A stretch of DNA of 64,000 nt from Sedimentisphaerales bacterium (GCA_049518795.1 JBEKRK010000002.1:564146-628145), one strand, 5' to 3'; shown: positions 7,232-54,232, counted from the first letter of the stretch. Translations and numbers: made by a program. Notes: generated by a model not told the origin, from the sequence alone.

Positions 7232-8383
7232 TTATGCGGTTTTTCTCCTTAAAAGAGTAAGCCCTCCAAACGTTAGCAGGCAAATTGTTGCCGGTTCGGG
7301 TATAGGTTGCCAAAGGATTGCGTGACTATTGGCCCCCATGTCATCAGTTGCATAGCCGACGATGTTGCCATTTATGTCGATACCTTCGGCAAAAGAATTG
7401 GTGAAATTACCCGGCAGGAACTGGTGCAAATCAATGTAGTTCTCGGCTGAGCCGTTCCAGAGCAGGGCGTGGGCGTGGTTGCTCGTGATCTCGCCATATC
7501 CGACCTGCTGTGTGCCGTTGGTGCCGTAGGCAACAGAACCGTAGAATCCAGCAGGGGTCAAATTGACATAGCTGTCGGCGGAGCCATTCCAGAGCAGGGC
7601 CTGGCCATCGCCACATCCGACCTGCTGTGTGCCGCTGATGCTGTAGGCATAAGACTGGCTGAACCCGGTGGGATTCAAATCGACGCAAGTTTCGGCCGAG
7701 CCATTCCAGAGAAGGGCGTGGTCGTAGTGCGTAGCCGGCCAGTAGCCACTACCAACCTGTTGTGTGCCGCTGATGTCGAAGGCACGAGATTTACCGAACC
7801 CGCTGGGGTTCAAATCGACGTAATTGTCTGGGGAGCCATTCCAGAGTAGGGCGTGGTCGCCGCCGTAGCCCGTAGCCTTGCCATTGCCATAGCCGACCTG
7901 CTGTGTGCCGTTGGTGCCATAGGCATAAGAATTGTCGAAGCCATTTGGGTTCAAGTCTACGCAGCTTGCCGCACTGCCACTCCAAAGAAAGGCGTGGTCG
8001 TAGAGCGTGTAGACCGTGATTGGAACGCCTCCCCAGCCGACCTGCTGTATGCCGTTGGTGCTGTAGGCATAAGAACTACTGAACTCAATGGGGTTCAAAT
8101 CGACATAGCCGGTTGCCGAGCCGTTCCAGAGCAGAGCGTGGCAGTAGTAGCCTGTGGCCGAACCAGAACCATAGCCGGCCTGCTGCGTGCCGCTGACCCC
8201 AAAAGCATAAGAGGTAGTAAATCCGCTGGGATTTAAATCTATTGCTGTGTAGGTTGTTCCCCAGGCAGGGTTTGCTGCGCCGGCTGCAAAAACCATCGCT
8301 GCGAAAAACACTAAATAGACATTCCTTCCATCTTCGCCAAGGCTTCGGCGGATAAAGTTGTGGCTTACAATTAACTTTTTCAT
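7232..8383 (-). CDS. PEP-CTERM protein with seven HAF-type extracellular repeats
   Basis: Signal peptide. Seven units of HALLWNGSAxxYVDLNPxGFxxSYAYGxxGTQQVGxG. C-terminus IPEPATICLLTFGGLTLLRRKTA. SD aaaaggagagg lies upstream. Confidence 0.85.
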   Translation of the reverse strand: MKKLIVSHNFIRRSLGEDGRNVYLVFFAAMVFAAGAANPAWGTTYTAIDLNPSGFTTSYAFGVSGTQQAGYGSGSATGYYCHALLWNGSATGYVDLNPIEFSSSYAYSTNGIQQVGWGGVPITVYTLYDHAFLWSGSAASCVDLNPNGFDNSYAYGTNGTQQVGYGNGKATGYGGDHALLWNGSPDNYVDLNPSGFGKSRAFDISGTQQVGSGYWPATHYDHALLWNGSAETCVDLNPTGFSQSYAYSISGTQQVGCGDGQALLWNGSADSYVNLTPAGFYGSVAYGTNGTQQVGYGEITSNHAHALLWNGSAENYIDLHQFLPGNFTNSFAEGIDINGNIVGYATDDMGANSHAILWQPIPEPATICLLTFGGLTLLRRKTA

Positions 8384-28674: not shown

Positions 28675-30015
28675 TTAATTTTTGTTTTCTTCAAAAATAT
28701 ATTGCCCAATCTGCCCTAATTTTTCACGCCAATCAGGAAAAACCGAGATGAGATGCTCTTTGTCCGTTTTTTCGAGTTTATATGAAATTTTGCCGTGCAC
28801 TTCGCTTTTCAGAATTTGTCCGTTTTTATCAAAGTATGTTGCCTGCCTGCCTCCATCCATACCCAAAAATTGAATATCGACAGCAAAGGAGATGTTCGGG
28901 TCAGTGTATTGCTGTTTTCGGGCCTTGGCGATAACAGCAGGTATGACTCGCCCGTCCGAAAGAAGCGTATCAACCATAACGGAATTAAAATCGCTTTGCA
29001 AAAAACTTTCAATAAGGAAATCCATCAATATATCCGGTATTATTGTCGGCGCAGAAGTAAAAGTCTGCTCGATTTTTTCACTGCGGATAGTTAATTTGTC
29101 TTCTTTGTCCAGTTCAATGCTTGTGGTTGTCTGGCGGTTAATTAAAAGGTCGCTTTGCCGGCTGACCCATTTGAAACTTTGAAGGTTCGGCTCGCCTCTC
29201 AGCAGACTTTGTTCCGCAAAAGACTGGACGCCTACTTTGAGCAGATACAAATTAGCCGCTATGAGCGACCCCCCGGTAAATCGGGGCTTATCAGTTTTGA
29301 CGGCAATTGCATCGGTAGTGAAGCCGATAGGACTGTCGGTATAGTTTTGTATGAAAAAGAAGTTCTGCTGCTGTCTTTTCCTTATTAAATCAGCAAGGGT
29401 TTTATTTTTGAAGTCATTTATCAGCTTTTTTCCGTTAGCCAAAGGATTATCCGGCGTGAAAGTCGCCGAAGCGGTAAGAGACCTGAAGATTTTATCGACA
29501 AGGTTTACATCCCGCCCTTTTTGAGCTACTTCGAGCGATAACGTCCTGCCGTCAGGCAGCAGAGTTGTGGCGCTGAGCAGCAAAGTCGAGTTTTTAGAAG
29601 AGACAATCCTGGCATAATCAAAGGTGAGCTGCCCGAATTTTTCTGAACCGGTTTTTTCGATGTTTCCATCAATGTAGGCGGCTTGCTCCTCAAATCTTTC
29701 AGCGGTCGTTCTCTTGAAAGGCACAATAAAATACCGCCAGTTCACCTTCACGACGGCGTCATTGCTTATCTGCATAGCAGAGGACAGTCGAAATTCATTA
29801 TCATTATATTCGAAACCATCGGTAATCACCTGGAAACCGGCGCCGGTTGGAACAGAGACCGAAACGCCGCAGCCGCCAAGCATAACCGGTTTAGAGAGTT
29901 TAAAACTTCCTCGTGATGAGACTATCAATTTTGCGATTAGAAGACCTGCCAGCAGCAGAAGCAGAAACGCGACTTTGTCGAGACCGAAACGTCTTGTTTT
30001 TTCACTATCAATCAT
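28675..30015 (-). CDS. hypothetical membrane-anchored protein
   Basis: 446-aa ORF with an N-terminal TM helix (VAFLLLLLAGLLIAKLIV). Confidence 0.65.
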   Translation of the reverse strand: MIDSEKTRRFGLDKVAFLLLLLAGLLIAKLIVSSRGSFKLSKPVMLGGCGVSVSVPTGAGFQVITDGFEYNDNEFRLSSAMQISNDAVVKVNWRYFIVPFKRTTAERFEEQAAYIDGNIEKTGSEKFGQLTFDYARIVSSKNSTLLLSATTLLPDGRTLSLEVAQKGRDVNLVDKIFRSLTASATFTPDNPLANGKKLINDFKNKTLADLIRKRQQQNFFFIQNYTDSPIGFTTDAIAVKTDKPRFTGGSLIAANLYLLKVGVQSFAEQSLLRGEPNLQSFKWVSRQSDLLINRQTTTSIELDKEDKLTIRSEKIEQTFTSAPTIIPDILMDFLIESFLQSDFNSVMVDTLLSDGRVIPAVIAKARKQQYTDPNISFAVDIQFLGMDGGRQATYFDKNGQILKSEVHGKISYKLEKTDKEHLISVFPDWREKLGQIGQYIFEENKN

Positions 30016-33503: not shown

Positions 33504-35153
33504 TTATGTGAATTCGATGTGGGTTTTGAATTTTTTGTCGTCTATTTGCGGGAAATCGCTGCGGAAATGAACGCCCCTGCTTTCTGTCCGGACTTCTGCT
33601 GCTTTTGCCATCATCAGGCAGACAGTCAGCATATTCTGACATTCCCAGCCGAGCGGGGAATCAAAAACCTTGTCTAAAACATACCGCTGCCAGAAACTGA
33701 TAATTTCCTGAGCCTCGGCAAGCGGCTTCGCAGAACGGGTTATACCGACGTTTCGCCACATAAGCGACCTGAGAGAATTAAGCACGTCAGAAGTATCAAG
33801 CCTGCTTCTGTCGGATTTCAGAACATCGTATTTAAACTTTCTTAAACCTGTTGCGCCATTGGTTTGACTGCTTTTCTGTGAGGCCAATCGACCTGCGATT
33901 CTGCCAAAGACCAGACCTTCCAGAAGCGAATTGCTGCCAAGCCGATTTGCGCCGTGCAGGCCGGTCGAGGCGACCTCGCCGCAGGCAAGAAGGTTCGGGA
34001 TATTTGTTCTTGCCTGGCCGTCTATTTTTACGCCGCCGACCATATAATGAGCGCTGGGGCGAACCGGTATCAGGTCTTTGCTTACGTCAATATCAAAACT
34101 TTCTACAAGTTCGCTGATAAGCGGAAATCGCTTTGCAAAATAATTTTTGTCAAGATGACGAATATCCAGAAAAACGTGTGTGGCATCCGTTTTGAGCATT
34201 TGAGACAGGATTGCTCTGCTTACAATATCGCGTGGAGCAAGCTCGGCGTCTTTGTGATATTCTGCCATAAAAGGATGATGATTAATGTCGCGCAGAATAG
34301 CGCCTTCGCCGCGAAGTGTCTCGGTAATCAATGCTCGCGATGCGCCTGCGATATAAAGCGTTGTTGGATGAAACTGCATAAATTCCATATCGCGCAAAAC
34401 GGCGCCTGCACGAGCGGCTATCGCAAGACCATCGGCTGTTGCGACTTCGGGATTTGTTGTCTCGCGGTAAAGCCTTCCCGCTCCGCCTGTGGCGAGAATT
34501 GTAGTTTTAGCCCAGATAATTTCCGGAGTTCCCTTTTGAGTTTGACCGAGGACGCCGAGGCAGGCGTCATCTTCATTTGTAATAAGGTCAATTACGTAGT
34601 AATTTTCGACAAAGGTTATATTATCAAACTGTCTTGCTTTGTTTAAAAGAGCCTGTGCGATTGCTCTGCCGGTATTATCTCCGAGAGCATGAGCGATTCG
34701 TGCGTGGCTGTGGCCGCCTTCGAATGTGATTGAGATTGAGCCGTCCTTTTGTCTGTCGAATTCAGCGCCCCAGTCAAGCAGCTCCTTTACAAGTCCGGGT
34801 CCGTCTTTTACAACCCGTTCAACAGTTTCTTTGTTGCATATACCGCAGCCGATTGTCAGGGTGTCTTCTATGTGCGAAGCGAAAGTATCATCACTGCCGA
34901 GCACCGAAGCGATTCCGCCCTGGGCGTTGAAGGTATTGCTGTCTTCGAGAGTTTTTTTGCAGACCAGCACGACTTCGCAGCCGTTTGTTGCTGCTTCAAT
35001 TGCCGCTCGAAGTCCCGCAACGCCGGAGCCGATTATCAGACAATCTGTAAATAGCTGCTGAGTGGCGGCTGTGTTTATCGGCACAAGATAACGGCGTAAA
35101 TCAGGCCGTTTCAGAACTATCGATTTGTCATTCATTTTTTTATTTTCGTCCAA
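33504..35153 (-). CDS. nadB: L-aspartate oxidase
   Basis: DCLIIGSGVAGLRAA FAD fold, HYMVGGV, GLHGANRLGSNSLLE, RGVHFR. An alternative start at ATG 35135 (MNDKS) would give an ATGA overlap with the bioD stop. Confidence 0.9.
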   Translation of the reverse strand: MDENKKMNDKSIVLKRPDLRRYLVPINTAATQQLFTDCLIIGSGVAGLRAAIEAATNGCEVVLVCKKTLEDSNTFNAQGGIASVLGSDDTFASHIEDTLTIGCGICNKETVERVVKDGPGLVKELLDWGAEFDRQKDGSISITFEGGHSHARIAHALGDNTGRAIAQALLNKARQFDNITFVENYYVIDLITNEDDACLGVLGQTQKGTPEIIWAKTTILATGGAGRLYRETTNPEVATADGLAIAARAGAVLRDMEFMQFHPTTLYIAGASRALITETLRGEGAILRDINHHPFMAEYHKDAELAPRDIVSRAILSQMLKTDATHVFLDIRHLDKNYFAKRFPLISELVESFDIDVSKDLIPVRPSAHYMVGGVKIDGQARTNIPNLLACGEVASTGLHGANRLGSNSLLEGLVFGRIAGRLASQKSSQTNGATGLRKFKYDVLKSDRSRLDTSDVLNSLRSLMWRNVGITRSAKPLAEAQEIISFWQRYVLDKVFDSPLGWECQNMLTVCLMMAKAAEVRTESRGVHFRSDFPQIDDKKFKTHIEFT

Positions 35154-35863
35154 TCAATTTTTTGCAGGGCTTTTAAAACCTTTTGGCCGATTATGAATTT
35201 TTTCATATTCGTCTTATCGTCAAAAGGCACAACGGCTATAATTTTTACCCTGCCCAGCTTTTTTATAATTTCAGCGTTAGTTTTTTCCGCAACGTCTTTA
35301 GTTTTCTCATCATAACCGTTAATTATTACCCCTGCAAGCAAAAGTCCTGCCCGCCGAACAGCGCCAATAGTTAAAAGTGTGTGATTTATTGTGCCAAGTT
35401 TCGACCTTGCGACGATTACAACGGGTAAATTAAAGGCTTTTGCAAGACTTAACACATTAACATTTTTTGTTATCGGCACTTTTATTCCGCCGATGCCTTC
35501 GATGATGACAAAATCACTTTTTTGACAGATTTGTTTATAGGCAGCGGCAATTTTTCTAAGGTCAACTTTTTTATTTTCCGCTTTTTCGCAGGCAAACGGT
35601 GCAGCAGGAACTTTAAAGGCAACTGGATTGATTATATCAAGAGCAAATTCGCTCTTGGCACAATGAGCCAAAAACTTTGCATCTTCGCTTATAAGTCTTT
35701 GTTTTATTTTTTTGCAGCCGGATGCGACAGGTTTAAATACACCAATATTTTCGCCTTTTTGTAAAAGAATTTTTGTAATCGCCCCGGCAATAAGTGTTTT
35801 TCCGACGCCGGTATCAGTGCCGGTGATAAATAATCCATTGCGTTTCGTGAAAATTAATTCCAT
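35132..35863 (-). CDS. bioD: dethiobiotin synthase
   Basis: LFITGTDTGVGKT P-loop and IIEGIGG motif. Confidence 0.85.
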   Translation of the reverse strand: MELIFTKRNGLFITGTDTGVGKTLIAGAITKILLQKGENIGVFKPVASGCKKIKQRLISEDAKFLAHCAKSEFALDIINPVAFKVPAAPFACEKAENKKVDLRKIAAAYKQICQKSDFVIIEGIGGIKVPITKNVNVLSLAKAFNLPVVIVARSKLGTINHTLLTIGAVRRAGLLLAGVIINGYDEKTKDVAEKTNAEIIKKLGRVKIIAVVPFDDKTNMKKFIIGQKVLKALQKIDWTKIKK

Positions 35864-35881: not shown

Positions 35882-36274
35882 TTAAGAAGATAATACGATT
35901 GAAGCAATCTTTTCTATAAGTTCAGCAGCCTGTTCAATATCATTTTCTGTTGATTCGTTCTCAAATTCGTCCCAACTGCCATAATCGCTTTCCATTCGAT
36001 TATCAAAAATGCCTGAGTAAAATTTCCCCATTGCAACAGGTATTATGCCCGGTTTGATGAAATGTTTATTAAATAACGACATTACTCCGCTATGCTTACT
36101 GCTTGAAAGGTCTTTGCTCAATAATAATGCCGTTATAGCATAAAAACAGGCGTAATATAAACGATTAGTGCAGCCGCGAGGATGGTTGGTTTTTAGCATA
36201 ATTTTTGCTTCATCGAGAGTCTCGTCAGCTCTCCTGAGCCAGTATTCAATAAGCTCTCTTTGGCCTTTTGTCAT
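35882..36274 (-). CDS. HEPN domain protein (toxin-like partner of the adjacent nucleotidyltransferase)
   Basis: 130 aa, with a RLYYACFYAITALL helix and an RMESDYG motif. 4-nt overlap with the upstream NTase gene. Confidence 0.75.
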   Translation of the reverse strand: MTKGQRELIEYWLRRADETLDEAKIMLKTNHPRGCTNRLYYACFYAITALLLSKDLSSSKHSGVMSLFNKHFIKPGIIPVAMGKFYSGIFDNRMESDYGSWDEFENESTENDIEQAAELIEKIASIVLSS

Positions 36275-36624
36275 CCTATTGCCACTCCGAAACGTTGAAT
36301 GTTATTATAAAGAGGTGTAGCTTTTGTAATTGGCATGTCCCATGTTGAAGTGCTTTTTATAATAGCACTGATAACAACATCATTTTTGAGGGAAATTTCA
36401 TATAATAAGTCTCGGATTTGTTTTTTCTTCTGTATAGTTAGTTCTTGGTCCAACAAAATCAGCAAATCAAGGTCGGACTCGGGACCAGCAGAACCTCTTG
36501 CGTAAGAACCATATAAAACCAGTTTTGCGCCTGTTTCAATTTCATTTAAAGCGGTTTGGCATTCGGACAAAATACTCAATATGTGGGGACTTAAATCTTT
36601 TTGTTTTTCTTTTAATCTATACAT
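36271..36624 (-). CDS. minimal nucleotidyltransferase (MNT) domain protein
   Basis: LYGSYARGSAGPESDLDLLIL (GSxxRG...DxD) motif. Confidence 0.8.
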   Translation of the reverse strand: MYRLKEKQKDLSPHILSILSECQTALNEIETGAKLVLYGSYARGSAGPESDLDLLILLDQELTIQKKKQIRDLLYEISLKNDVVISAIIKSTSTWDMPITKATPLYNNIQRFGVAIG

Positions 36625-36713
36625 AATGCACCTTTTAGTATCCGATTAGTATTATATCGGATTTTCATATTCAGGCAATAGATGTTTTGCAGGTGTAGTT
36701 GGCAATGCTTTCC

Positions 36714-36742
36714 TTGACATACTGTAAATAAAGTGCTTAAAT
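36714..36742 (+). promoter_or_regulatory. sigma-70-type promoter candidate (TTGACA-N17-TTAAAT)
   Basis: ttgaca at 36714-36719 and ttaaat at 36737-36742. It overlaps the GTG 36733 start of the track ORF, which argues for the downstream start. Confidence 0.4.
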
Positions 36743-36777
36743 ACTGCGAAAATTACATACAAATTGGGATTATTCTT

Positions 36778-38001
36778 TTGAATGTTTTAGTTTTTAATTG
36801 CGGCAGCTCTTCGCTTAATTACAAAGTCTTTGAATTAACCGATTCCAAAGATGATAAAGTTATATTGTCCGGCAAGGCTCACCGGATAGGAGTCATCGGC
36901 ACTGAATCGTCTTTTATCGAGCATAAGCTTGACGGCAAAAGTCTAAAGGTTACTGTTTCCCTTGAAAATCACAGTCAGGCTGCCAGCCTGATTATAAAAT
37001 ATATAAGAGAAGAGAGAAATATCGACATTGGTCTGATAGGACACCGGTTTGTCCATTCCGGCGGGTTTTTCGACAAATCCGCTTTTATCGACAGCAAGTC
37101 TCTGAAAAAACTGCGCCAATGCCTGCCTTTTGCGCCAATTCATAACCCGATTTCGCTAAATGTTATAGATGAGTCGATAAAAGCGTTTCCGCAGTTAAAG
37201 CAGTATGTTGCCTTTGACTCTGCCTTTCATTCCACTATTCCGCCCTGTGCATATACTTATCCGCTGCCGGAGAAAATCTTAAAAAAATTCAGGTTCAGGA
37301 AATACGGTTTTCACGGCCTGTCTTATCTGCATACAATGAGGGAAACTGCCCGTTTTTTGCAGACGACCCCTGAGAAATTAAAAATTGTCGCTTGTCATCT
37401 TGGAACAGGCGGCTCAAGCGTAGCCGCGATAAAAAATGGACGGTCAATTGATACATCTATGGGGTTTTCTCCGCTTACAGGTCTTGCGATGAGCACTCGC
37501 TGCGGAGATATTGACCCGATGCTGACAATATATCTGATGAGTGTTTATGGCTATCGCGCCGATGAAATGCAGGATGTGCTTGAAAGAAAAAGCGGCCTTT
37601 TGGGCGTTTCGGGCTTTTCAAGCGATATCCGGGACATAATAAATTTTACTTCCAAAGGAGAAAAAGAGCAGGCTGAACTGGCGTTGAATATGTATGTCCA
37701 CCGGATTAAAAAATATATCGGCGGCTATGTGGTAATAATGGGCGGGATAGATGCACTTGTGTTTACCGACGATATCGGCGTAACTAATTGGCTGGTAAGA
37801 GAAAAGATATGCAATAATATGGATTGGTGCGGCGTTAATCTGGATGGAGAAATGAACCGCAAAACAGAGAACGCCAAAATTTGCCGGATTAACAAAAAAG
37901 ACTCTAAGACAAGTATTCTTTCCATACCGCCGGATGAAGAACGAATTATTTTTCTGGAAGGAGTCAAATTACTTGAAATGTTGAAAGAGAAAAGCCGATG
38001 A
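36778..38001 (+). CDS. ackA: acetate (short-chain acyl) kinase
   Basis: NVLVFNCGSSSLNYKVF, HRFVHSGG, APIHNP, FDSAFH, RKYGFHGLSY, DTSMGFSPLTGLAMSTRCGDIDP. Start tentatively at in-frame TTG 36778; the track ORF begins at GTG 36733. Confidence 0.8.
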   Translation: MNVLVFNCGSSSLNYKVFELTDSKDDKVILSGKAHRIGVIGTESSFIEHKLDGKSLKVTVSLENHSQAASLIIKYIREERNIDIGLIGHRFVHSGGFFDKSAFIDSKSLKKLRQCLPFAPIHNPISLNVIDESIKAFPQLKQYVAFDSAFHSTIPPCAYTYPLPEKILKKFRFRKYGFHGLSYLHTMRETARFLQTTPEKLKIVACHLGTGGSSVAAIKNGRSIDTSMGFSPLTGLAMSTRCGDIDPMLTIYLMSVYGYRADEMQDVLERKSGLLGVSGFSSDIRDIINFTSKGEKEQAELALNMYVHRIKKYIGGYVVIMGGIDALVFTDDIGVTNWLVREKICNNMDWCGVNLDGEMNRKTENAKICRINKKDSKTSILSIPPDEERIIFLEGVKLLEMLKEKSR

Positions 38002-39131
38002 TTTTGCTTTTTGATAATAATATGTCGAGTTTAAGCTGGTGCAAGGCTGAGGATGGACGTTTTCATTCGGATTCGTGCGAATTTTCTCTATCTTGCTGCG
38101 ATAGTATAATTAAAGATGTCGGCGGTTCGGGCAAAATCGAAGCTGTAGGTTATTTATTACGGCACAGCACAGAACTTTTTGAGGAACAAACCGTTTTACT
38201 CACGGGGCAATTGCTTGACAAGCTGCGGAACAATACCAGTTTCTTTCCTGAATACAGCGATATGACATTTAAGGTTATTGATTACTGGATAGAGAAAATG
38301 TCGAAGGCGGCGCACGTTTTAATTTCCGATACCACTTTCTTTAATAAACTGCCTGCACAAGCCGGTAATTATGCTGTTCCTTATGAACTTAGTAAAAAGG
38401 GAATAAGAAGATACGGTGGATACGGATTATTTCATTCCTGGGCGGTTGAAAATGTTTCAGCTTACGCAAAATTGCCGCTGTCAAAAATTATATCTGTTTA
38501 TATCGGAGACCGGACGAATGTCGCGGCTGTGAAAGATGGAATAGCCGTGGAAACAAGCACCGGTTTTACACCTGTGGAGGGGATTTTATCTTCAACCGGC
38601 TGCGGCGATATCGACCCTACGATTGTTTTTTATCTGCAGTCAATAGGAATGACTTTTGGCCAGATAACCCATCTGCTTTCCAGCCAAAGCGGTTTTACCG
38701 CACTTATGAATCCCGTTAGAAACAAGGCATCTATGATGCCTGACGGTTGCCAAAGGCAACCTGTTTCTAACGGGATGAATAAACAGGCAAGCCTGACGGA
38801 TGTTATAAACGCCGGCGCTGACGCTAAACAAGCTCTGGATATTTATCTGTATCAGGTTAAAAGATATATCGGCAGTTTTATTTCTGTGCTCGGCGGTGTT
38901 GATGCCGTTTTTTTCCTTGCGGAAAAACCTTTTCTTTATGGCACAATTATTTCACAAATCTGCCGGCAATTGGAATTTTTGGGTTTAAAATGTAACACAA
39001 TCACTGAAAACAGCGATTTTTTGCAGGATTTGACAGATAATGCTTCACTTATAAAGGTTTTCAGTTTAAGCTGTAACAAATGGGAAATTATGACTCATAA
39101 TATCAAACGATTGCTCGATAAGGAGAAATAG
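37998..39131 (+). CDS. acetate kinase paralog with degenerate active-site motifs
   Basis: Colinear with ackA (RRYGGYGLFHSW, ETSTGFTPVEGILSSTGCGDIDP), but the N-terminal and HNP motifs are replaced (FDNNMSSLSW, FFPEYSD). ATGA overlap with ackA. Confidence 0.7.
   Translation: MILLFDNNMSSLSWCKAEDGRFHSDSCEFSLSCCDSIIKDVGGSGKIEAVGYLLRHSTELFEEQTVLLTGQLLDKLRNNTSFFPEYSDMTFKVIDYWIEKMSKAAHVLISDTTFFNKLPAQAGNYAVPYELSKKGIRRYGGYGLFHSWAVENVSAYAKLPLSKIISVYIGDRTNVAAVKDGIAVETSTGFTPVEGILSSTGCGDIDPTIVFYLQSIGMTFGQITHLLSSQSGFTALMNPVRNKASMMPDGCQRQPVSNGMNKQASLTDVINAGADAKQALDIYLYQVKRYIGSFISVLGGVDAVFFLAEKPFLYGTIISQICRQLEFLGLKCNTITENSDFLQDLTDNASLIKVFSLSCNKWEIMTHNIKRLLDKEK
38710..38776. repeat. family-5 element with 15-nt terminal inverted repeats (ATCCCGTTAGAAACA / TGTTTCTAACGGGAT), intragenic
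   Basis: The arms enclose two inner palindromes (ggcat-ctatg-atgcc and ggttgcc-aaa-ggcaacc). Translated as NPVRNKASMMPDGCQRQPVSNGM. Confidence 0.75.
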
Positions 39132-39133
39132 CG

Positions 39134-39925
39134 ATGAATGACGAAAAAAGATTTCTTGTTGATGTAGGTATGAAGGATTTGCCTTTTCCGATAAGGGTGC
39201 TGTCCAGGGTCAACCCGGAAGGGCAGTTTACAATTGCCAATATTTCCGTCGATGCCCGGATAATGCAGCAGTTCGAGGCGAAATGGATTGACCAGTTCAT
39301 TATTATTCTTCATCAGCACCGCGACATAATAGGCACAAAGACAATTGCGACAAATGTCTGGGATTATCTGGAGAAATTAAAAGCAAATACCGCCCAGATA
39401 ACCTTCGATTACCCGTTTTTTGTTGAAAAACTTACGCCTGTATCGAAGGAAAAATGCCTTGTCAGATACTTGTGCAAATATATCGCCAAGGCTCATTCGA
39501 CAGAAAAAAAAGCGCGCGTCATATTCAGAATCGCGGTGCCGTGTATTACGACATATCCGGCGTCGCATCCGGAAATGCAAAAAAGTCTTTTCGGCCAGCT
39601 CAGTATTATAGATATTGAGGTTGATTCGAAAAAGGATGTTTATCCTGAATCTATAATCGATCTTGTGGATAAACACGCGCTGGTGCCGGTTTATTCTTTT
39701 CTGACCGAAAAAGACCAGGACTTTGTTATAGACAAGATACATTCACAAAGTAAAACCAGTGTTGTTGTGATTGACGAGATAAAGGACGAGCTTGCCCGCG
39801 ATAGCAATATTAACTGGTATGCGGTTCGCAGTTCTAATTTCGGAATGCTTCATTCCTATCAAACGGTAATCGGAACTGAAAAAAGTATGTGGGTGCCGTT
39901 CAGCGGTTACAGTGAAGACGTATAA
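39134..39925 (+). CDS. FolE2/MptA (GTP cyclohydrolase IB) family-like protein, possibly divergent
   Basis: VGMKDLPFPIRV and DYPFFVEKLTPVS resemble conserved FolE2 segments as I recall them. The expected Cys/His-rich metal-site motifs are not evident. Confidence 0.5.
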   Translation: MNDEKRFLVDVGMKDLPFPIRVLSRVNPEGQFTIANISVDARIMQQFEAKWIDQFIIILHQHRDIIGTKTIATNVWDYLEKLKANTAQITFDYPFFVEKLTPVSKEKCLVRYLCKYIAKAHSTEKKARVIFRIAVPCITTYPASHPEMQKSLFGQLSIIDIEVDSKKDVYPESIIDLVDKHALVPVYSFLTEKDQDFVIDKIHSQSKTSVVVIDEIKDELARDSNINWYAVRSSNFGMLHSYQTVIGTEKSMWVPFSGYSEDV

Positions 39926-41268
39926 TTCGGTAAATCGTTTTTAATTGTGTCGTAAACGATATCGAGTAATTTTTGCAGCAAGGGCAAATCAATCGCCACC
40001 GGCGGCATTAGAACGATACAATCCGACAAAGACCGCATCATTGCTTCTTTAGGTCTCATTGCTTCGCAGACCTTTGCGCCAATCAATTCCTCGTAAGCGA
40101 ATGATTCTTTAGATTTTTTATCTTTAACAATCTCAATACCTGCCATTAAGCCGCATTGACGGACATCGCCGACATAATCCAATACCGAGATTTTTTTGAG
40201 ATAATCGGCAATCAAATCTATTTTTGCAGGCAGCGATTCGATTATTTTGTTTTCCTCAAAAAGTTCGAGCGAAGCAATCGCTGCGGCACAGGCTAATGCG
40301 TTGCCGGTGTAGGTATGGCCGTGAAAAAATGTCTTAAATTCTTCAGGTTCACCTAAAAAAGCGTCAAAAATCTCCTGCGTCGTAAGTGTAGCCGCCAAAG
40401 GCAGATAGCCGCCGGTAATTCCTTTTGCAAGGCACATAATATCGGGCTGGACATCTTCATTTTCGCAGGCAAACATCCTGCCCGTTCTGCCGAAACCGGT
40501 TGCGACCTCATCGGCTATCAGAAAACAATCGTATTTTTTTGTAAGGTCTCTAACGCCTTTTAAAAAACCTTTCGGATGAACAATCATTCCTGCTGCACCC
40601 TGAACCAGCGGCTCGACGATTACCGCTGCGATTTTGTCCGAATGTTTCTTTAAAAGTTCCTCGATTTTATCGAGACTAAACTGTCTGCATTGCTCGGCAG
40701 AACCATTGAAACGATACGGGAAAGGAGAAGGGGCAAAAAAAGTGTCAAAAAGCATCGGCTTAAAAATCGAATGAAATATTTCCATTCCGCCGACGCTGAC
40801 TGAGCCGATTGTATCGCCGTGGTAAGATTGTCCCAATGCTATAAATTTATCTCTTTTTTGACCTTTATTATGATAATACTGGTAAGCGATTTTCAAAGCG
40901 ATTTCAACGCTTGTTGCGCCGCTGTCGGAATAAAAGACTTTTTTAAGATTTTTTGGCGCAATAGCGATAAGTTTCTCGGCAAGTTCGATAGATTTTGTCT
41001 GCGCGAGACCCAAAAGGGTGCTGTGGGCAATTTTTTCAAGCTGCTTTTTTATAGCGTCATCGATTTTTTTGACTCTGTGGCCGTGAACATTACACCAAAG
41101 ACTACTAACACCATCGATATAGCATCTGCCTTCGGTATCAATCAGGTAAAAGCCGTCGCCAGACTCAATAACAACCGGCTCAGAAGCCAGCCAGGCCTTC
41201 ATCTGTGTAAACGGGTGCCAGAGATATTCCTTATCAAAGTTGATTAACTTTTCAGTTCCGGAATTCAT
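39907..41268 (-). CDS. bioA: adenosylmethionine-8-amino-7-oxononanoate aminotransferase
   Basis: Class III aminotransferase motifs YHGDT, ADEVATGFGRTG, LAKGITGGYLP. Confidence 0.9.
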   Translation of the reverse strand: MNSGTEKLINFDKEYLWHPFTQMKAWLASEPVVIESGDGFYLIDTEGRCYIDGVSSLWCNVHGHRVKKIDDAIKKQLEKIAHSTLLGLAQTKSIELAEKLIAIAPKNLKKVFYSDSGATSVEIALKIAYQYYHNKGQKRDKFIALGQSYHGDTIGSVSVGGMEIFHSIFKPMLFDTFFAPSPFPYRFNGSAEQCRQFSLDKIEELLKKHSDKIAAVIVEPLVQGAAGMIVHPKGFLKGVRDLTKKYDCFLIADEVATGFGRTGRMFACENEDVQPDIMCLAKGITGGYLPLAATLTTQEIFDAFLGEPEEFKTFFHGHTYTGNALACAAAIASLELFEENKIIESLPAKIDLIADYLKKISVLDYVGDVRQCGLMAGIEIVKDKKSKESFAYEELIGAKVCEAMRPKEAMMRSLSDCIVLMPPVAIDLPLLQKLLDIVYDTIKNDLPNYTSSL

Positions 41269-47202: not shown

Positions 47203-47234
47203 AAAGGCTGTGAATTTTTTCACAGCCTTTTTTT
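47203..47234. terminator. bidirectional intrinsic terminator between convergent genes
   Basis: aaaaggctgtg-aatttttt-cacagcc-ttttttt: an A-tract and a T-tract flank a 7-bp GC-rich stem. Confidence 0.7.
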
Positions 47235-48708
47235 CAGTATTTTCTGGTTTTGGCAGAATTTGAGCTGTTGTAATTCACGAAGAAATACCGCAGAGCGTCA
47301 ATTGGATGGTCGTAAATACCGTCCTTTAAAGGCAATTCTTCCGCACCTTCCTGCGGATAATGATAACACTGCATAGCCTCAATAAGCCTGCCGCAGCGAG
47401 GACTGATAACAAAATTGCTTCGTCCATCGCCGCTGCGCAAAGCCCTGCGAATAAGCTCTATTCCTTCCAATATCGAACTGCGTTTATAACGAAGTATTAC
47501 GCTGGCCTTTCTTAATTGAAAAACAGGACTTGTGCCTGTAACATCATTTACGCCAGCTCCCGCAGGGTCGCAAAAAGTAGCAATAATCCGCTCTTCGCTG
47601 AAAGGTATCCTGTTTTTTATCTCGTCAGCGTGAACGTCAATCGTCTGCCTGCTTTGGACATATTCATCAATGACGCGAACAGTTCCATTTCCGTCAATCT
47701 GAATCCACAAACATACAAACGGATTGACAAAGCCAAAGTCAATCGCGCGATACAGCGGCAAAGCCGGATTATAATCGACAGACGCAATGTGCACGTCAGG
47801 CTCGAATTCCGCAAAGACAACGTTTTCAAGCGATGGCCGAAGACAAAGCATTTCAGACTCAAAGGCGGCTCTGCTGCTCCGCCGCATCTGTGCCAGAACG
47901 TCATCTATCTTCAAATAGCCTGACGCTTTTCTCGCTCTGCCCCGGCAATCGTTATTCAGCGGACATCTTGAGCAGCTTCTGTCCGGCGGACAATTTTCAA
48001 TAACTTCCCAGACGCACCATTTGAAAATCGGCGTTCCGCAGGAAGAGGCCTTGCCGACAAGCTCGTGCATAATGCCGAAAGGCTGATGCATCGTGCTAAG
48101 CGATTCTATTGCACCGACAATTTCATTAGTGCTTTTGGTAACGAACTTTGCCGCTTCGAGAATCTGCCTGTCGAAAAGCTCAACCTCATCACAACGTAAT
48201 TTCTGGATATGACTGCCGCGAACGGAAGCCGCCGATTGGGTGAGAACTTCGACATCTGAGCCGTTAAGGAAGCTGCATTTATTTTTATGAACAGGTTCGG
48301 AAAGAAAACCTTCAAAACCTTTTCTTAAAAATTCGAGCAGGTAATCGAACATTCTTTGAGCCTGCAATTCACTGCCGGCGAGGATTCTAACTTTACAGTC
48401 AGGCTTAAAGATACAATCCAGCAGCGTAGCAACAGCGGCCAAAAGTGTCTTTCCGCCTCCGCGGCCTGCCCAGACGACACAATCCTTTGAGATTTGAGAT
48501 TTGAAATTTCAGAGAAGCAATGCTAAAGATAATCCATCGGCGTATTATGTTCAGGACAGATTTTTGCCTCGCCGATGTCAAGGCCGAGAAAGACTTTGAG
48601 ATAATTTTTTAAATCGGTTCTTGTCAGCGGTCTTGTTTTTTTAAGAGTTTGGTAAAAACTATTTGCTTTTAAAAGATGCTGCGGAGATAGAATGATTGAG
48701 TTGTGCAT
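47234..48708 (-). pseudogene. phage terminase large subunit, interrupted near the N-terminus (fragments 48523..48708 and 47234..48508)
   Basis: Own upstream extension of the 402-aa ORF reads NFKSQISKDCVVWAGRGGGKTLLAAVATLL. The Walker A (GRGGGKT) therefore lies upstream of the only usable start codon. A 61-aa ORF ending ...CPEHNTPMDYL lies upstream in another frame. A family-4 repeat sits at the junction. Confidence 0.65.
48488..48514. repeat. family-4 repeat at the terminase break point
   Basis: tgagatttgagatttgaaatttcagag. Confidence 0.75.
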
Positions 48709-52769: not shown

Positions 52770-52888
52770 AAAAAATTCAAAAGTGTAGAACCACGACACG
52801 GGGAATAAATTTTTTCATTTTCTTCTTTTTTTTTCGTTCGATTATAGGATAAGAAGAGGCAGATTTTCTTATAAGCAGGGATTTGGCG

Positions 52889-54232
52889 ATGGTAAGGAAA
52901 CTGGTTTTTGCAGCGTTTGTTATAGGGTTTTGTTTTTGTCCAATGCTGCGCGGAGAGGAGAAAACTGCTGATGATGCCGCTAAAAAGGTAACCGACCTCA
53001 AACATCCAACCGACTGGCTTGAACTTGGCGGAGATTTTCGTTTCCGGTTTGCGTATGATAATGCCCGCAATCTCGACAATAAAGCTTTCGGACACGAGAG
53101 AATCCAAATGCGTTTTCGCGCAAGAGTGCAGGCGAAGATAAGATTAACCGACGACCTTGACTTTAATATACGGCTTATGACAGAGCCGCGATATTATATC
53201 AGGGCTGAGGCAGAGCCGCACCATTGGGCATATAACGAGGCGCTGTTCGATAAGTTAAACCTGACATGGAGAAACGCGTTCGATTTGCCAATGACGATAG
53301 TCGCCGGCAGGCAGGAAATAATACTCGGCAGCGGCTGGCTCGTTTGTGACGGCACACCGTTAGACGGCGGCAGAACCGCTTACTTTGATGCTCTGCGATT
53401 CACATATAATATTGATTCCAACACCACGGCAGATGTCATATTGATTGACAATCACGCCGACAGCGCGAAATGGTTCAAACCCTTTAACGACAGGGACATC
53501 GACCTTTCGGAACAGGACGAGCGGGGAGCCATATTGTATTTTAACAAGAAAACCTCGAAAGATTCCGGCATTGACCTGTATTTAATTTACAAACACGACG
53601 CTCATCGAATCGTAAGCAGCGGCTCTGAAGGCGAAATTTACACACTCGGCACCAGATTCTACGGCAAATTAAACGACCACTGGCAATACAGTGCCGAATT
53701 TGCGCCGCAATTCGGGCACAAAAACGGCAAAAGTCTCGGCGCATTCGGAACAAACAATCAGTTGATTTATAATTTCAACGATGAAAAGAAAAACAGGATA
53801 TATCTCGGCTACGAATATCTTTCCGGCAGCCGAGACCCCGATAAGAATTTCGACAGGGGCTGGGGACGCGTTGATACCTGGAGCTATCTATATCAGGGCA
53901 ATATCGATGCCATTGACGGCAGAGCGTATGACAATTCCAATATGCACAGGATTTACACGGACTGGGCGACTAACCTTACTGAAAAGACAGAACTGAAAAC
54001 CGGCTATGCGATTCTGTTTGCAGACGAGAACACCAATAAAGCCGGCACCGGCGGAATGAGCGAACACGGCAAATTACGCGGACATCTGCTCAGGACGGTG
54101 CTTTCATACAAGCCGACTAAAAACATAGAACACAAACTGGAAGGCGAAGTGTTTATCCCCGGCAATTTCTACAGCGACGACAGAAACGACGTCGCTGTGT
54201 TTTTCAGATATAATCTGATTTTTACCTGGTAG
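52889..54232 (+). CDS. outer-membrane beta-barrel porin (alginate-export/AlgE-like family candidate)
   Basis: Signal peptide. Alternating-strand composition. C-terminal aromatic terminus RYNLIFTW. ATG 52889 preferred over TTG 52883. Confidence 0.65.
   Translation: MVRKLVFAAFVIGFCFCPMLRGEEKTADDAAKKVTDLKHPTDWLELGGDFRFRFAYDNARNLDNKAFGHERIQMRFRARVQAKIRLTDDLDFNIRLMTEPRYYIRAEAEPHHWAYNEALFDKLNLTWRNAFDLPMTIVAGRQEIILGSGWLVCDGTPLDGGRTAYFDALRFTYNIDSNTTADVILIDNHADSAKWFKPFNDRDIDLSEQDERGAILYFNKKTSKDSGIDLYLIYKHDAHRIVSSGSEGEIYTLGTRFYGKLNDHWQYSAEFAPQFGHKNGKSLGAFGTNNQLIYNFNDEKKNRIYLGYEYLSGSRDPDKNFDRGWGRVDTWSYLYQGNIDAIDGRAYDNSNMHRIYTDWATNLTEKTELKTGYAILFADENTNKAGTGGMSEHGKLRGHLLRTVLSYKPTKNIEHKLEGEVFIPGNFYSDDRNDVAVFFRYNLIFTW

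Follow-up and report, generated by a model that had tools for sequence, protein, structure and literature searches.

The acetate kinase AckA (EC 2.7.2.1) is ordinarily ATP-dependent. In the ATP-dependent acetate kinases (ATP-ACKs), the residues Asn211, Gly239 and Gly331 are highly conserved, and experiments on the M. thermophila enzyme have established that they govern nucleotide use (PMC4390882). The acetate kinase (ACK) of E. histolytica, EhACK (EC 2.7.2.12), depends on inorganic phosphate and pyrophosphate (Pi/PPi) and is distinguished by Thr201, an inserted Gly203, a serine in LOOP3 and Asp322 (PMC5517563, PMC5931981). GTP cyclohydrolase IB (FolE2), a T-fold enzyme, has the metal ligands Cys154, His166 and Glu208, the proposed base Glu250 and a conserved His253 (B. 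pseudomallei numbering, PMC11573665). Here we describe three consecutive genes that bring relatives of these enzymes together, at positions 36778-39925 (+ strand) of a 64,000-nucleotide stretch of DNA from a metagenome-assembled genome (MAG) of a Sedimentisphaerales bacterium, phylum Planctomycetota (GCA_049518795.1 JBEKRK010000002.1:564146-628145), the whole of which is called the window below. Gene 1 (AckA*) encodes a kinase of the Entamoeba type, gene 2 (AckA') a pseudo-kinase that keeps the acetate kinase fold, and gene 3 (FolE2') a T-fold protein that lacks the FolE2 metal site. The reading that we favour, tentatively and with a probability of roughly 0.42, is that this triad is a conserved operon, complete in itself, which belongs to the acetyl-phosphate node and encodes a single hetero-oligomeric acetate-kinase complex.

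The three genes are packed without appreciable spacing. Gene 1 (36778-38001, +) begins with TTG and encodes 407 amino acids (aa), the same as in the public gene call, though a longer reading of the open reading frame (ORF) from a GTG at 36733 is possible. It shares an ATGA stop/start overlap (37998-38001, +) with gene 2 (37998-39131, +; 377 aa), read directly from the sequence and consistent with translational coupling; 4-nt or otherwise short gene overlaps are also seen in the coordinates of related loci. At the junction of genes 2 and 3 (39121-39136, +), a direct reading gives a Shine-Dalgarno-like AGGAG at 39121-39125 within the end of gene 2, the gene 2 stop codon TAG at 39129-39131, two spacer nucleotides (39132-39133) and then, at 39134, the ATG that opens gene 3 (39134-39925, +; 263 aa). 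A preliminary description had presented the genes as one tightly coupled unit, and its ORFs, overlap and gap were all recovered as described, together with every peptide motif that it quoted from the translations.

To place gene 1 among the acetate kinases, its product was compared with family models, solved structures and homologs, with residues numbered as in M. thermophila ACK here and below. It scored 383 bits against PF00871 (Pfam) and 389 bits against TIGR00016 (NCBIfam), for which the cut-off is 293. The residues of acetate handling and phosphoryl transfer, Arg91, His123, Asp148, Phe179, His180, Arg241 and Glu384, are all kept in gene 1 and in 39 of the 39 members of its clade. The positions of the ATP site are different. 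In gene 1, Asn211 is replaced by Thr, Gly239 by Ser, Gly331 by Asp and Lys14 by Asn, and over the AckA* clade the first three replacements were found in 39/39, 38/39 and 38/39 members, respectively. Furthermore, AckA* has Asp in place of Ala330 and one added Gly in PHOSPHATE2, and has lost the Lys14 of PHOSPHATE1. The corresponding motifs of gene 1 read HLGTGGSS, MSTRCGDIDP and FTDDIG. When near-full-length AckA* homologs were collected, FTDD[IVLM]G was present in 118 of 119, MSTR.GD in 117 and HLGTGG[ST]S in 106, while the ATP-type HLGNG, FT[AG]G[IV]G and Lys14 were found in none of the 119. Gene 1 therefore agrees with ATP-dependent AckA in its fit to the family model and in its transfer residues, and departs from it in the ATP-site determinants.

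The closest solved structure is that of EhACK (4H0O, 382.6 bits), followed by T. maritima at 314.5 bits. In a neighbour-joining tree, simple and built on a limited sample, EhACK was sister to the AckA* clade, and the three ACK groups of these loci were each monophyletic. The two proteins share the catalytic core and have identical motifs HLGTGGSS and MSTRCGDIDP as well as the FTD of the third motif, and gene 1 has equivalents of four distinguishing features of EhACK, namely Thr201 (Thr at Asn211), the inserted Gly203, the LOOP3 Ser and Asp322 (the Asp before the Gly331 position); Lys14 is missing from both. However, EhACK reads FTDQMG where gene 1 reads FTDDIG, and the residues that close off the adenosine pocket of EhACK, Gln323-Met324 and Glu327, are Asp-Ile and Thr in gene 1. 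The same Asp-Asp variant as in gene 1 occurs in Anaerolineae ACKs, four sequences described as putatively non-ATP by Dang & Ingram-Smith (2017), who left open whether these enzymes use PPi at all and what their partner is. Judged by its sequence, gene 1 belongs to the Entamoeba Pi/PPi-type clade and has the full catalytic complement of an acetate kinase; it is not an ordinary ATP-type AckA, and it probably uses a non-ATP phosphoryl partner.

Gene 2, publicly annotated as "hypothetical protein", matches PF00871 with 167 bits (Pfam) and is a weak member of the TIGR00016 family (156.8 bits, under the cut-off of 293.4; NCBIfam). Most of the residues kept in gene 1 have been replaced in it: Arg91 by Leu, His123 by Tyr, Phe179 by Gly, His180 by Tyr and Arg241 by Gly, with Glu384 lost, and all three ATPase motifs are absent. 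Alignment of 40 AckA' members to M. thermophila ACK showed that Arg91, Phe179, His180, Arg241 and Glu384 are gone throughout the family. Asp148 is kept in 39/40, and Leu122 has given way to a new acidic residue in 40/40 (Glu in 38/40). The AlphaFold2 (AF2) model of gene 2 has a mean predicted local distance difference test (pLDDT) score of 86.8 and a predicted template-modelling (pTM) score of 0.87, and its top Foldseek matches are acetate kinases, with template-modelling (TM) scores of about 0.75. ORFs are intact across the family, and 35 positions are at least 95% conserved. Given these intact ORFs, this conservation and the confident fold, gene 2 is not a pseudogene; it is a genuine pseudo-kinase in which the acetate-kinase (ASKHA) fold is confidently retained. 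A lineage-specific insert of 23 aa, NPVRNKASMMPDGCQRQPVSNGM, occupies about residues 237-259 (38706-38774) and is not in the family consensus. It accounts for the length of gene 2, 377 aa as against about 355 aa elsewhere, and AF2 predicts disorder there (residues 250-260).

The product of gene 3 carries the NCBI name "GTP cyclohydrolase, FolE2/MptA family". It matches PF02649 (FolE2) with 87.2 bits, above the gathering cut-off of 25, but reaches only 68.6 bits on the FolE2 equivalog NF010200, far under the cut-off of 215. Its homology with FolE2 proteins of known structure (3D2O, 2R5R, 8G6C) extends over the full length (E ~1e-20), and it has the same bimodular T-fold: the AF2 model (pLDDT 85, pTM 0.80) retrieved FolE2 structures in Foldseek, with TM scores of 0.79-0.89 at 20-22% identity. 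The structural motifs in common with FolE2 are VG..LP.P, a PVS that comes after an (F/Y)P(F/Y)F segment, and, within IHNH, the first His. When gene 3 was aligned to solved FolE2 proteins and canonical FolE2 representatives, the three metal-ligand positions were found to be substituted (Cys154 by Tyr141, His166 by Phe153, Glu208 by Gln195), as was the catalytic base (Glu250 by Gly237), and His253 alone is kept, as His240. At the level of motifs, CPCS has become YPAS, AHNQRS LFGQLS, PDEK KDQD and ENFESIHNH SNFGMLHSY, and GTHMSRF and PKFVED are replaced as well.

These replacements are themselves under strong constraint. Among 120 FolE2' sequences, Tyr141 is found in 114, Phe153 in 117, Gln195 in 118 and Gly237 in all 120, and 62 of the 263 positions of gene 3 are at least 98% conserved. 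The family has also acquired near-invariant His and Cys residues of its own (His60, His62, Cys108, Cys114 and His203), and, unlike FolE2, it carries a conserved C-terminal extension (STVIGTEKSMWVPFSGY) with near-invariant Lys250 and Trp253. Helices, strands and loops are all conserved to a similar degree, a pattern that suggests constraint on several surfaces. Relatives 58-68% identical to gene 3 occur across Planctomycetota, Omnitrophota, Elusimicrobiota, Myxococcota, Spirochaetota, Bacteroidota, Acidobacteriota and others, with further carriers at the same identity in Kiritimatiellia, Zixibacteria, Ignavibacteria, Desulfobacterota and Nitrospinota. When 1.84 billion cluster representatives were searched exhaustively, FolE2' amounted to essentially one 50% cluster, followed by a few outliers at 36-42% and then by canonical FolE2 at no more than 30%. 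The family, at 58% identity or more within itself, is a tight clade set off from canonical FolE2. When all three genes were compared over one set of 37 loci, the mean pairwise identity came to 63% for FolE2', 56% for AckA* and 40% for AckA'. Gene 3, with this level of identity over more than 12 phyla, is thus the most conserved and slowest-evolving of the three genes and shows no decay. Very strong purifying selection acts on this offshoot of the GTP cyclohydrolase IB T-fold, which has become metal-free. One contig carries two copies (L093, 3-2445): an AckA' cut by the contig end is followed by a FolE2' (62% identical to gene 3) and then by a diverged FolE2'-like paralog, which is 50% identical to the first copy and 41% to gene 3 and has lost part of the family-invariant residues.

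The standard annotation, with an ordinary ATP-acetate kinase, a decaying duplicate and a working GTP cyclohydrolase IB, agrees with the Pfam and TIGR family matches and with the NCBI name of gene 3. It is nevertheless contradicted by the alignments and very improbable, since gene 3 has other residues in place of all three FolE2 metal ligands and of the catalytic Glu and falls below the equivalog cut-off, no AckA* homol­og among the 119 has the ATP-type motifs or Lys14, and the gene 2 family is intact, with its conserved positions and confident fold. Gene decay as such was rejected because the ORFs are intact, the sequences conserved and the predicted folds confident. The preliminary description had inferred from the sequence that gene 2 is catalytically inactive with its fold preserved, and the lost residues, the AF2 model (pLDDT 87) and the acetate kinases at the top of its PDB matches bear this out; the catalytic-residue alignment that it proposed likewise showed that the residues are not intact in genes 2 and 3. 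Its account of gene 3 as a FolE2 fold without the metal-site motifs was also correct, but "degenerate" does not suit a gene that evolves most slowly and whose replacement residues are near-invariant. Similarly, its identification of gene 1 as ackA holds for the catalytic kinase and fails for the standard ATP type, the nucleotide site being of the Entamoeba type.

To assess how far this arrangement is conserved, we scanned one genome per GTDB species, which yielded 206 relatives, and examined the best 80 together with the exact-match loci. This gave 85 non-redundant FolE2' loci, 82 of which had enough upstream sequence to be informative. The proportions that follow are biased, because the 80 loci are those most similar to the query. 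The full triad in the same order was found in 42/82 loci, so that synteny, the conservation of which the preliminary description had asked to see checked, is widespread. In 12/82 loci, FolE2' lies directly 3' of an ordinary (ATP-type) ackA, 10 of them with pta upstream; 4/82 loci are of a Geobacter type, with ackA, pta and an aldehyde dehydrogenase gene upstream; and 24/82 have no ACK gene within 8 kb. The gene 3 family is therefore not confined to the triad but also stands behind pta-ackA operons and sometimes alone. Anaerobaca lacustris (GCA_030012215.1), a carrier in culture, has its folE2' behind pta-ackA. Few residues follow these contexts: nothing of note told triad, pta-ackA and stand-alone FolE2' sequences apart, two columns differing in the pta-ackA group only.

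The triad carriers come from about 12 phyla, have unrelated flanking genes and, as far as found, are all MAGs. Look-ups anchored on AckA* recovered the triad in 3/3 cases, and those anchored on distant AckA' homologs in 2/2. The same gene order in dozens of unrelated genomes puts the arrangement far beyond chance. As its flanks vary from locus to locus, the closest relative excepted, the triad behaves as a unit complete in itself. Across 37 loci, moreover, the genes of the triad are correlated with one another in pairwise identity (r = 0.79-0.87). When ORFs within ~6 kb were clustered over the 85 loci, no gene family other than the ACK family and pta recurred across lineages; pta is a neighbour in 19 loci and a phosphoketolase gene in one, and the remaining neighbours are lineage-specific. 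The FolE2' family is thus genomically tied to acetate kinases of both types, whereas the neighbours of FolE2 proper are folate or queuosine genes. With acetyl-phosphate genes as the recurring neighbours, the system points to unusual acetate metabolism rather than to something outside acetate metabolism, and the earlier proposal of a role apart from standard acetate and folate metabolism is upheld for folate and amended in this way for acetate.

The placement of FolE2' 3' of ackA in 12 loci, and of the triad next to pta, an ATP-type ackA or a phosphoketolase gene in several, recalls the Pta-AckA and Xfp-Ack pathways, although those pathways use ATP/ADP and need no accessory subunits. In one locus (L095, 1538-6880), pta, an ATP-type ackA, AckA*, AckA' and FolE2' stand in one string, the two kinases being called as a single 826-aa product, probably through a frameshift. 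The presence of an EhACK-type kinase beside an ATP-type kinase in one operon implies a distinct role; the two kinase types coexist and presumably do different things with acetyl phosphate. In a further locus (L094, 3801-11089), an ATP-type ackA, a gene for a BrkB-family protein and a phosphoketolase gene come after a triad whose AckA* is split in two. In five Geobacter-type MAGs (L063, L071, L082, L083 and L087), FolE2' comes directly behind a 451-aa aldehyde dehydrogenase family gene, with ackA and pta further upstream in 4/5 and genes for NADH-dehydrogenase/Mrp-like membrane subunits downstream. Carriage on plasmids was considered and rejected, as the FolE2 present in PLSDB is all canonical (22-25% identity), and so is the AckA (at most 40%).

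In a Sumerlaeota MAG (L024, 6921-8792), AckA' and FolE2' form a single in-frame ORF of 623 aa with no stop codon between them; the ORF keeps an internal AGGAGG and ATG, and may be a true fusion or the result of a lost stop codon. A second candidate, a 483-aa protein from the representative search (P0241), joins AckA*-type residues 1-296 to FolE2' from about position 78 and has no AckA'. It was rejected as a natural AckA*-FolE2' fusion, since half of each partner is missing and it looks like a deletion or misassembly.

These observations bear on the idea that the genes are co-transcribed but functionally independent, AckA* being a stand-alone Pi/PPi (or other) kinase and AckA' and FolE2' sharing only their regulation with fermentation genes. 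We consider this improbable. EhACK works alone in vitro (PMC5517563) and FolE2' also occurs alone, both as independence would have it, but it leaves unexplained the strict co-occurrence in fixed order with stop/start overlaps across about 12 phyla with varying flanks, the one AckA'-FolE2' fusion, and the restriction of AckA' to the triad in all loci examined.

The favoured reading of a single hetero-oligomeric complex accommodates the same facts; its physical side we infer from the translational coupling, the strict co-occurrence and the one gene fusion. Under this model, AckA* would interconvert acetyl phosphate + Pi and acetate + PPi, or would work with some different phosphoryl partner that is not ATP. 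AckA' would replace one protomer of the usual ACK dimer, or dock on the dimer, and bridge the kinase to a FolE2' oligomer. FolE2', in turn, would bind a ligand in its remodelled former active-site pocket and so tune or scaffold the acetate-kinase activity, and would serve an ordinary Pta-AckA likewise in lineages where AckA* and AckA' are absent.

Several observations weigh against such a complex. The AckA'-FolE2' fusion comes from one MAG only, and its internal Shine-Dalgarno site and ATG are still there. The activity of EhACK alone in vitro (PMC5517563) means that accessory proteins may not be needed for catalysis. No ACK gene lies within 8 kb in the 24 of 82 FolE2' loci mentioned above, and the FolE2' sequence is alike in all contexts, some of them without ACK, so its role cannot depend on AckA'. 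AckA* has Asp-Ile at the positions of Gln323-Met324 in EhACK. Finally, the near-invariance of the replacement residues is no less compatible with a new enzyme activity than with a regulator.

The last point leads to the main rival, in which FolE2' is a neo-functionalised enzyme whose metal-free pocket catalyzes a reaction feeding or draining the acetate-kinase step. FolE2' might then make acetyl phosphate, or handle the second substrate or product of the kinase, with AckA' as the adaptor to the EhACK-type kinase, and kinases of this type would have their "missing partner" in FolE2'. The residues around the former active site (Tyr141, Phe153, Gln155, Ser157, Asp194, Gln195, Asn235, Gly237, His240 and Tyr242) are 95-100% conserved, there is the new set of invariant His and Cys residues, and an identity of ~63% across phyla is typical of core enzymes. 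That FolE2' is found without AckA', and at times without any adjacent ACK gene, fits this proposal too, as does the acknowledged lack of a known acetyl-phosphate source for EhACK (PMC9983610). T-folds are moreover known to change chemistry, and QueF-like proteins, DHNA and urate oxidase are among the remote structural matches. On the other hand, the sequence itself suggests no candidate substrate, Pta is already encoded in many loci as an acetyl-phosphate source and a phosphoketolase in one, and no further conserved neighbour points to a pathway. On balance, we regard a new FolE2' enzyme as somewhat unlikely, while taking it seriously.

A bolder proposal makes AckA' and FolE2' obligatory subunits of an unrecognised bacterial system around an Entamoeba-type acetate kinase. 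As a T-fold put to a new use, FolE2' would here perform a new reaction or bring the kinase its non-ATP substrate, and acetyl phosphate would be converted into PPi or another phosphoanhydride for PPi-dependent glycolysis in many uncultured anaerobes. We think this unlikely; if true, the triad would identify the kind of partner sought for EhACK. A look for PPi-PFK, PPDK, pta and a true folE within the 64-kb window gave nothing relevant.

Upstream of the triad lies an intergenic region (36625-36777, +) that presumably holds the operon promoter. It has a TTGACA hexamer at 36714-36719; the assignment is tentative, because a consensus scan of this region gave no full sigma-70-like site on the + strand. 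The triad sits between bioD and bioA, on the strand opposite to both. The genes nadB and bioD (33504-35863, -) overlap by 22 nt, and bioA (39907-41268, -) is convergent with gene 3 and overlaps it by 19 nt (39907-39925); NCBIfam equivalogs confirm these identifications. A link of the triad to bioD and bioA was rejected, as this context is common to the closest relative (L010) only and the other loci differ. Between bioD and the triad are genes for a HEPN-domain protein (130 aa) and an MNT-type nucleotidyltransferase (117 aa) at 35882-36624 (-). The two overlap and form a toxin-antitoxin-like pair, in which the nucleotidyltransferase matches PADLOC PDC-S09 at 6e-20 and, weakly, MntA. Since the closest relative is without the pair, it looks like a separate recent insertion. 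The reading of the triad as a defence system, which this adjoining pair had prompted, was rejected, given that the triad proteins have no PADLOC match and that the relative lacks the pair. Elsewhere in the window, large ORFs (383-449 aa) without a Pfam match at E <= 1e-5 are found at 28675-30015 (-), 47234-48442 (-), 52883-54232 (+) and 7232-8383 (-).

Pseudo-enzyme partners of active paralogs are a general principle, as in pseudokinase-kinase pairs, and AckA', an inactive protein that retains its fold and is encoded next to AckA* in translational coupling, resembles such pairs. To our knowledge, the acetate kinase family has no such pairing on record, and none is known that includes a T-fold pseudo-enzyme as its third member; the literature searched gave neither. 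Nor did full-text searches turn up an account of the module, a paper that connects FolE2-like proteins with acetate kinase, or a report of EhACK-type kinases in bacteria that have partner proteins. The triad seems to be a system, so far undescribed, that is accessory to acetyl-phosphate metabolism, in which AckA' would be an example of a pseudo-enzyme partner within the acetate kinase family.

For gene 3, the consequence is one of annotation: the FolE2' family currently goes under the wrong name, "GTP cyclohydrolase FolE2/MptA". Its members cannot be cyclohydrolases, and it plainly calls for re-annotation, possibly with a new T-fold function. For gene 1, it concerns the Pi/PPi-dependent acetate kinase, which has been demonstrated in Entamoeba alone and whose acetyl-phosphate source and physiological role in that organism are still unresolved (PMC9983610). 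The supply of PPi for PPi-dependent glycolysis in anaerobic bacteria is likewise an open question (PMC8863071). No accessory proteins have been reported for EhACK, whereas its bacterial sister clade, widespread in uncultured anaerobes of more than 12 phyla, is accompanied by AckA' and FolE2' in every locus examined. The triad therefore gives concrete, clonable candidates for testing the needs and the role of EhACK-type kinases.

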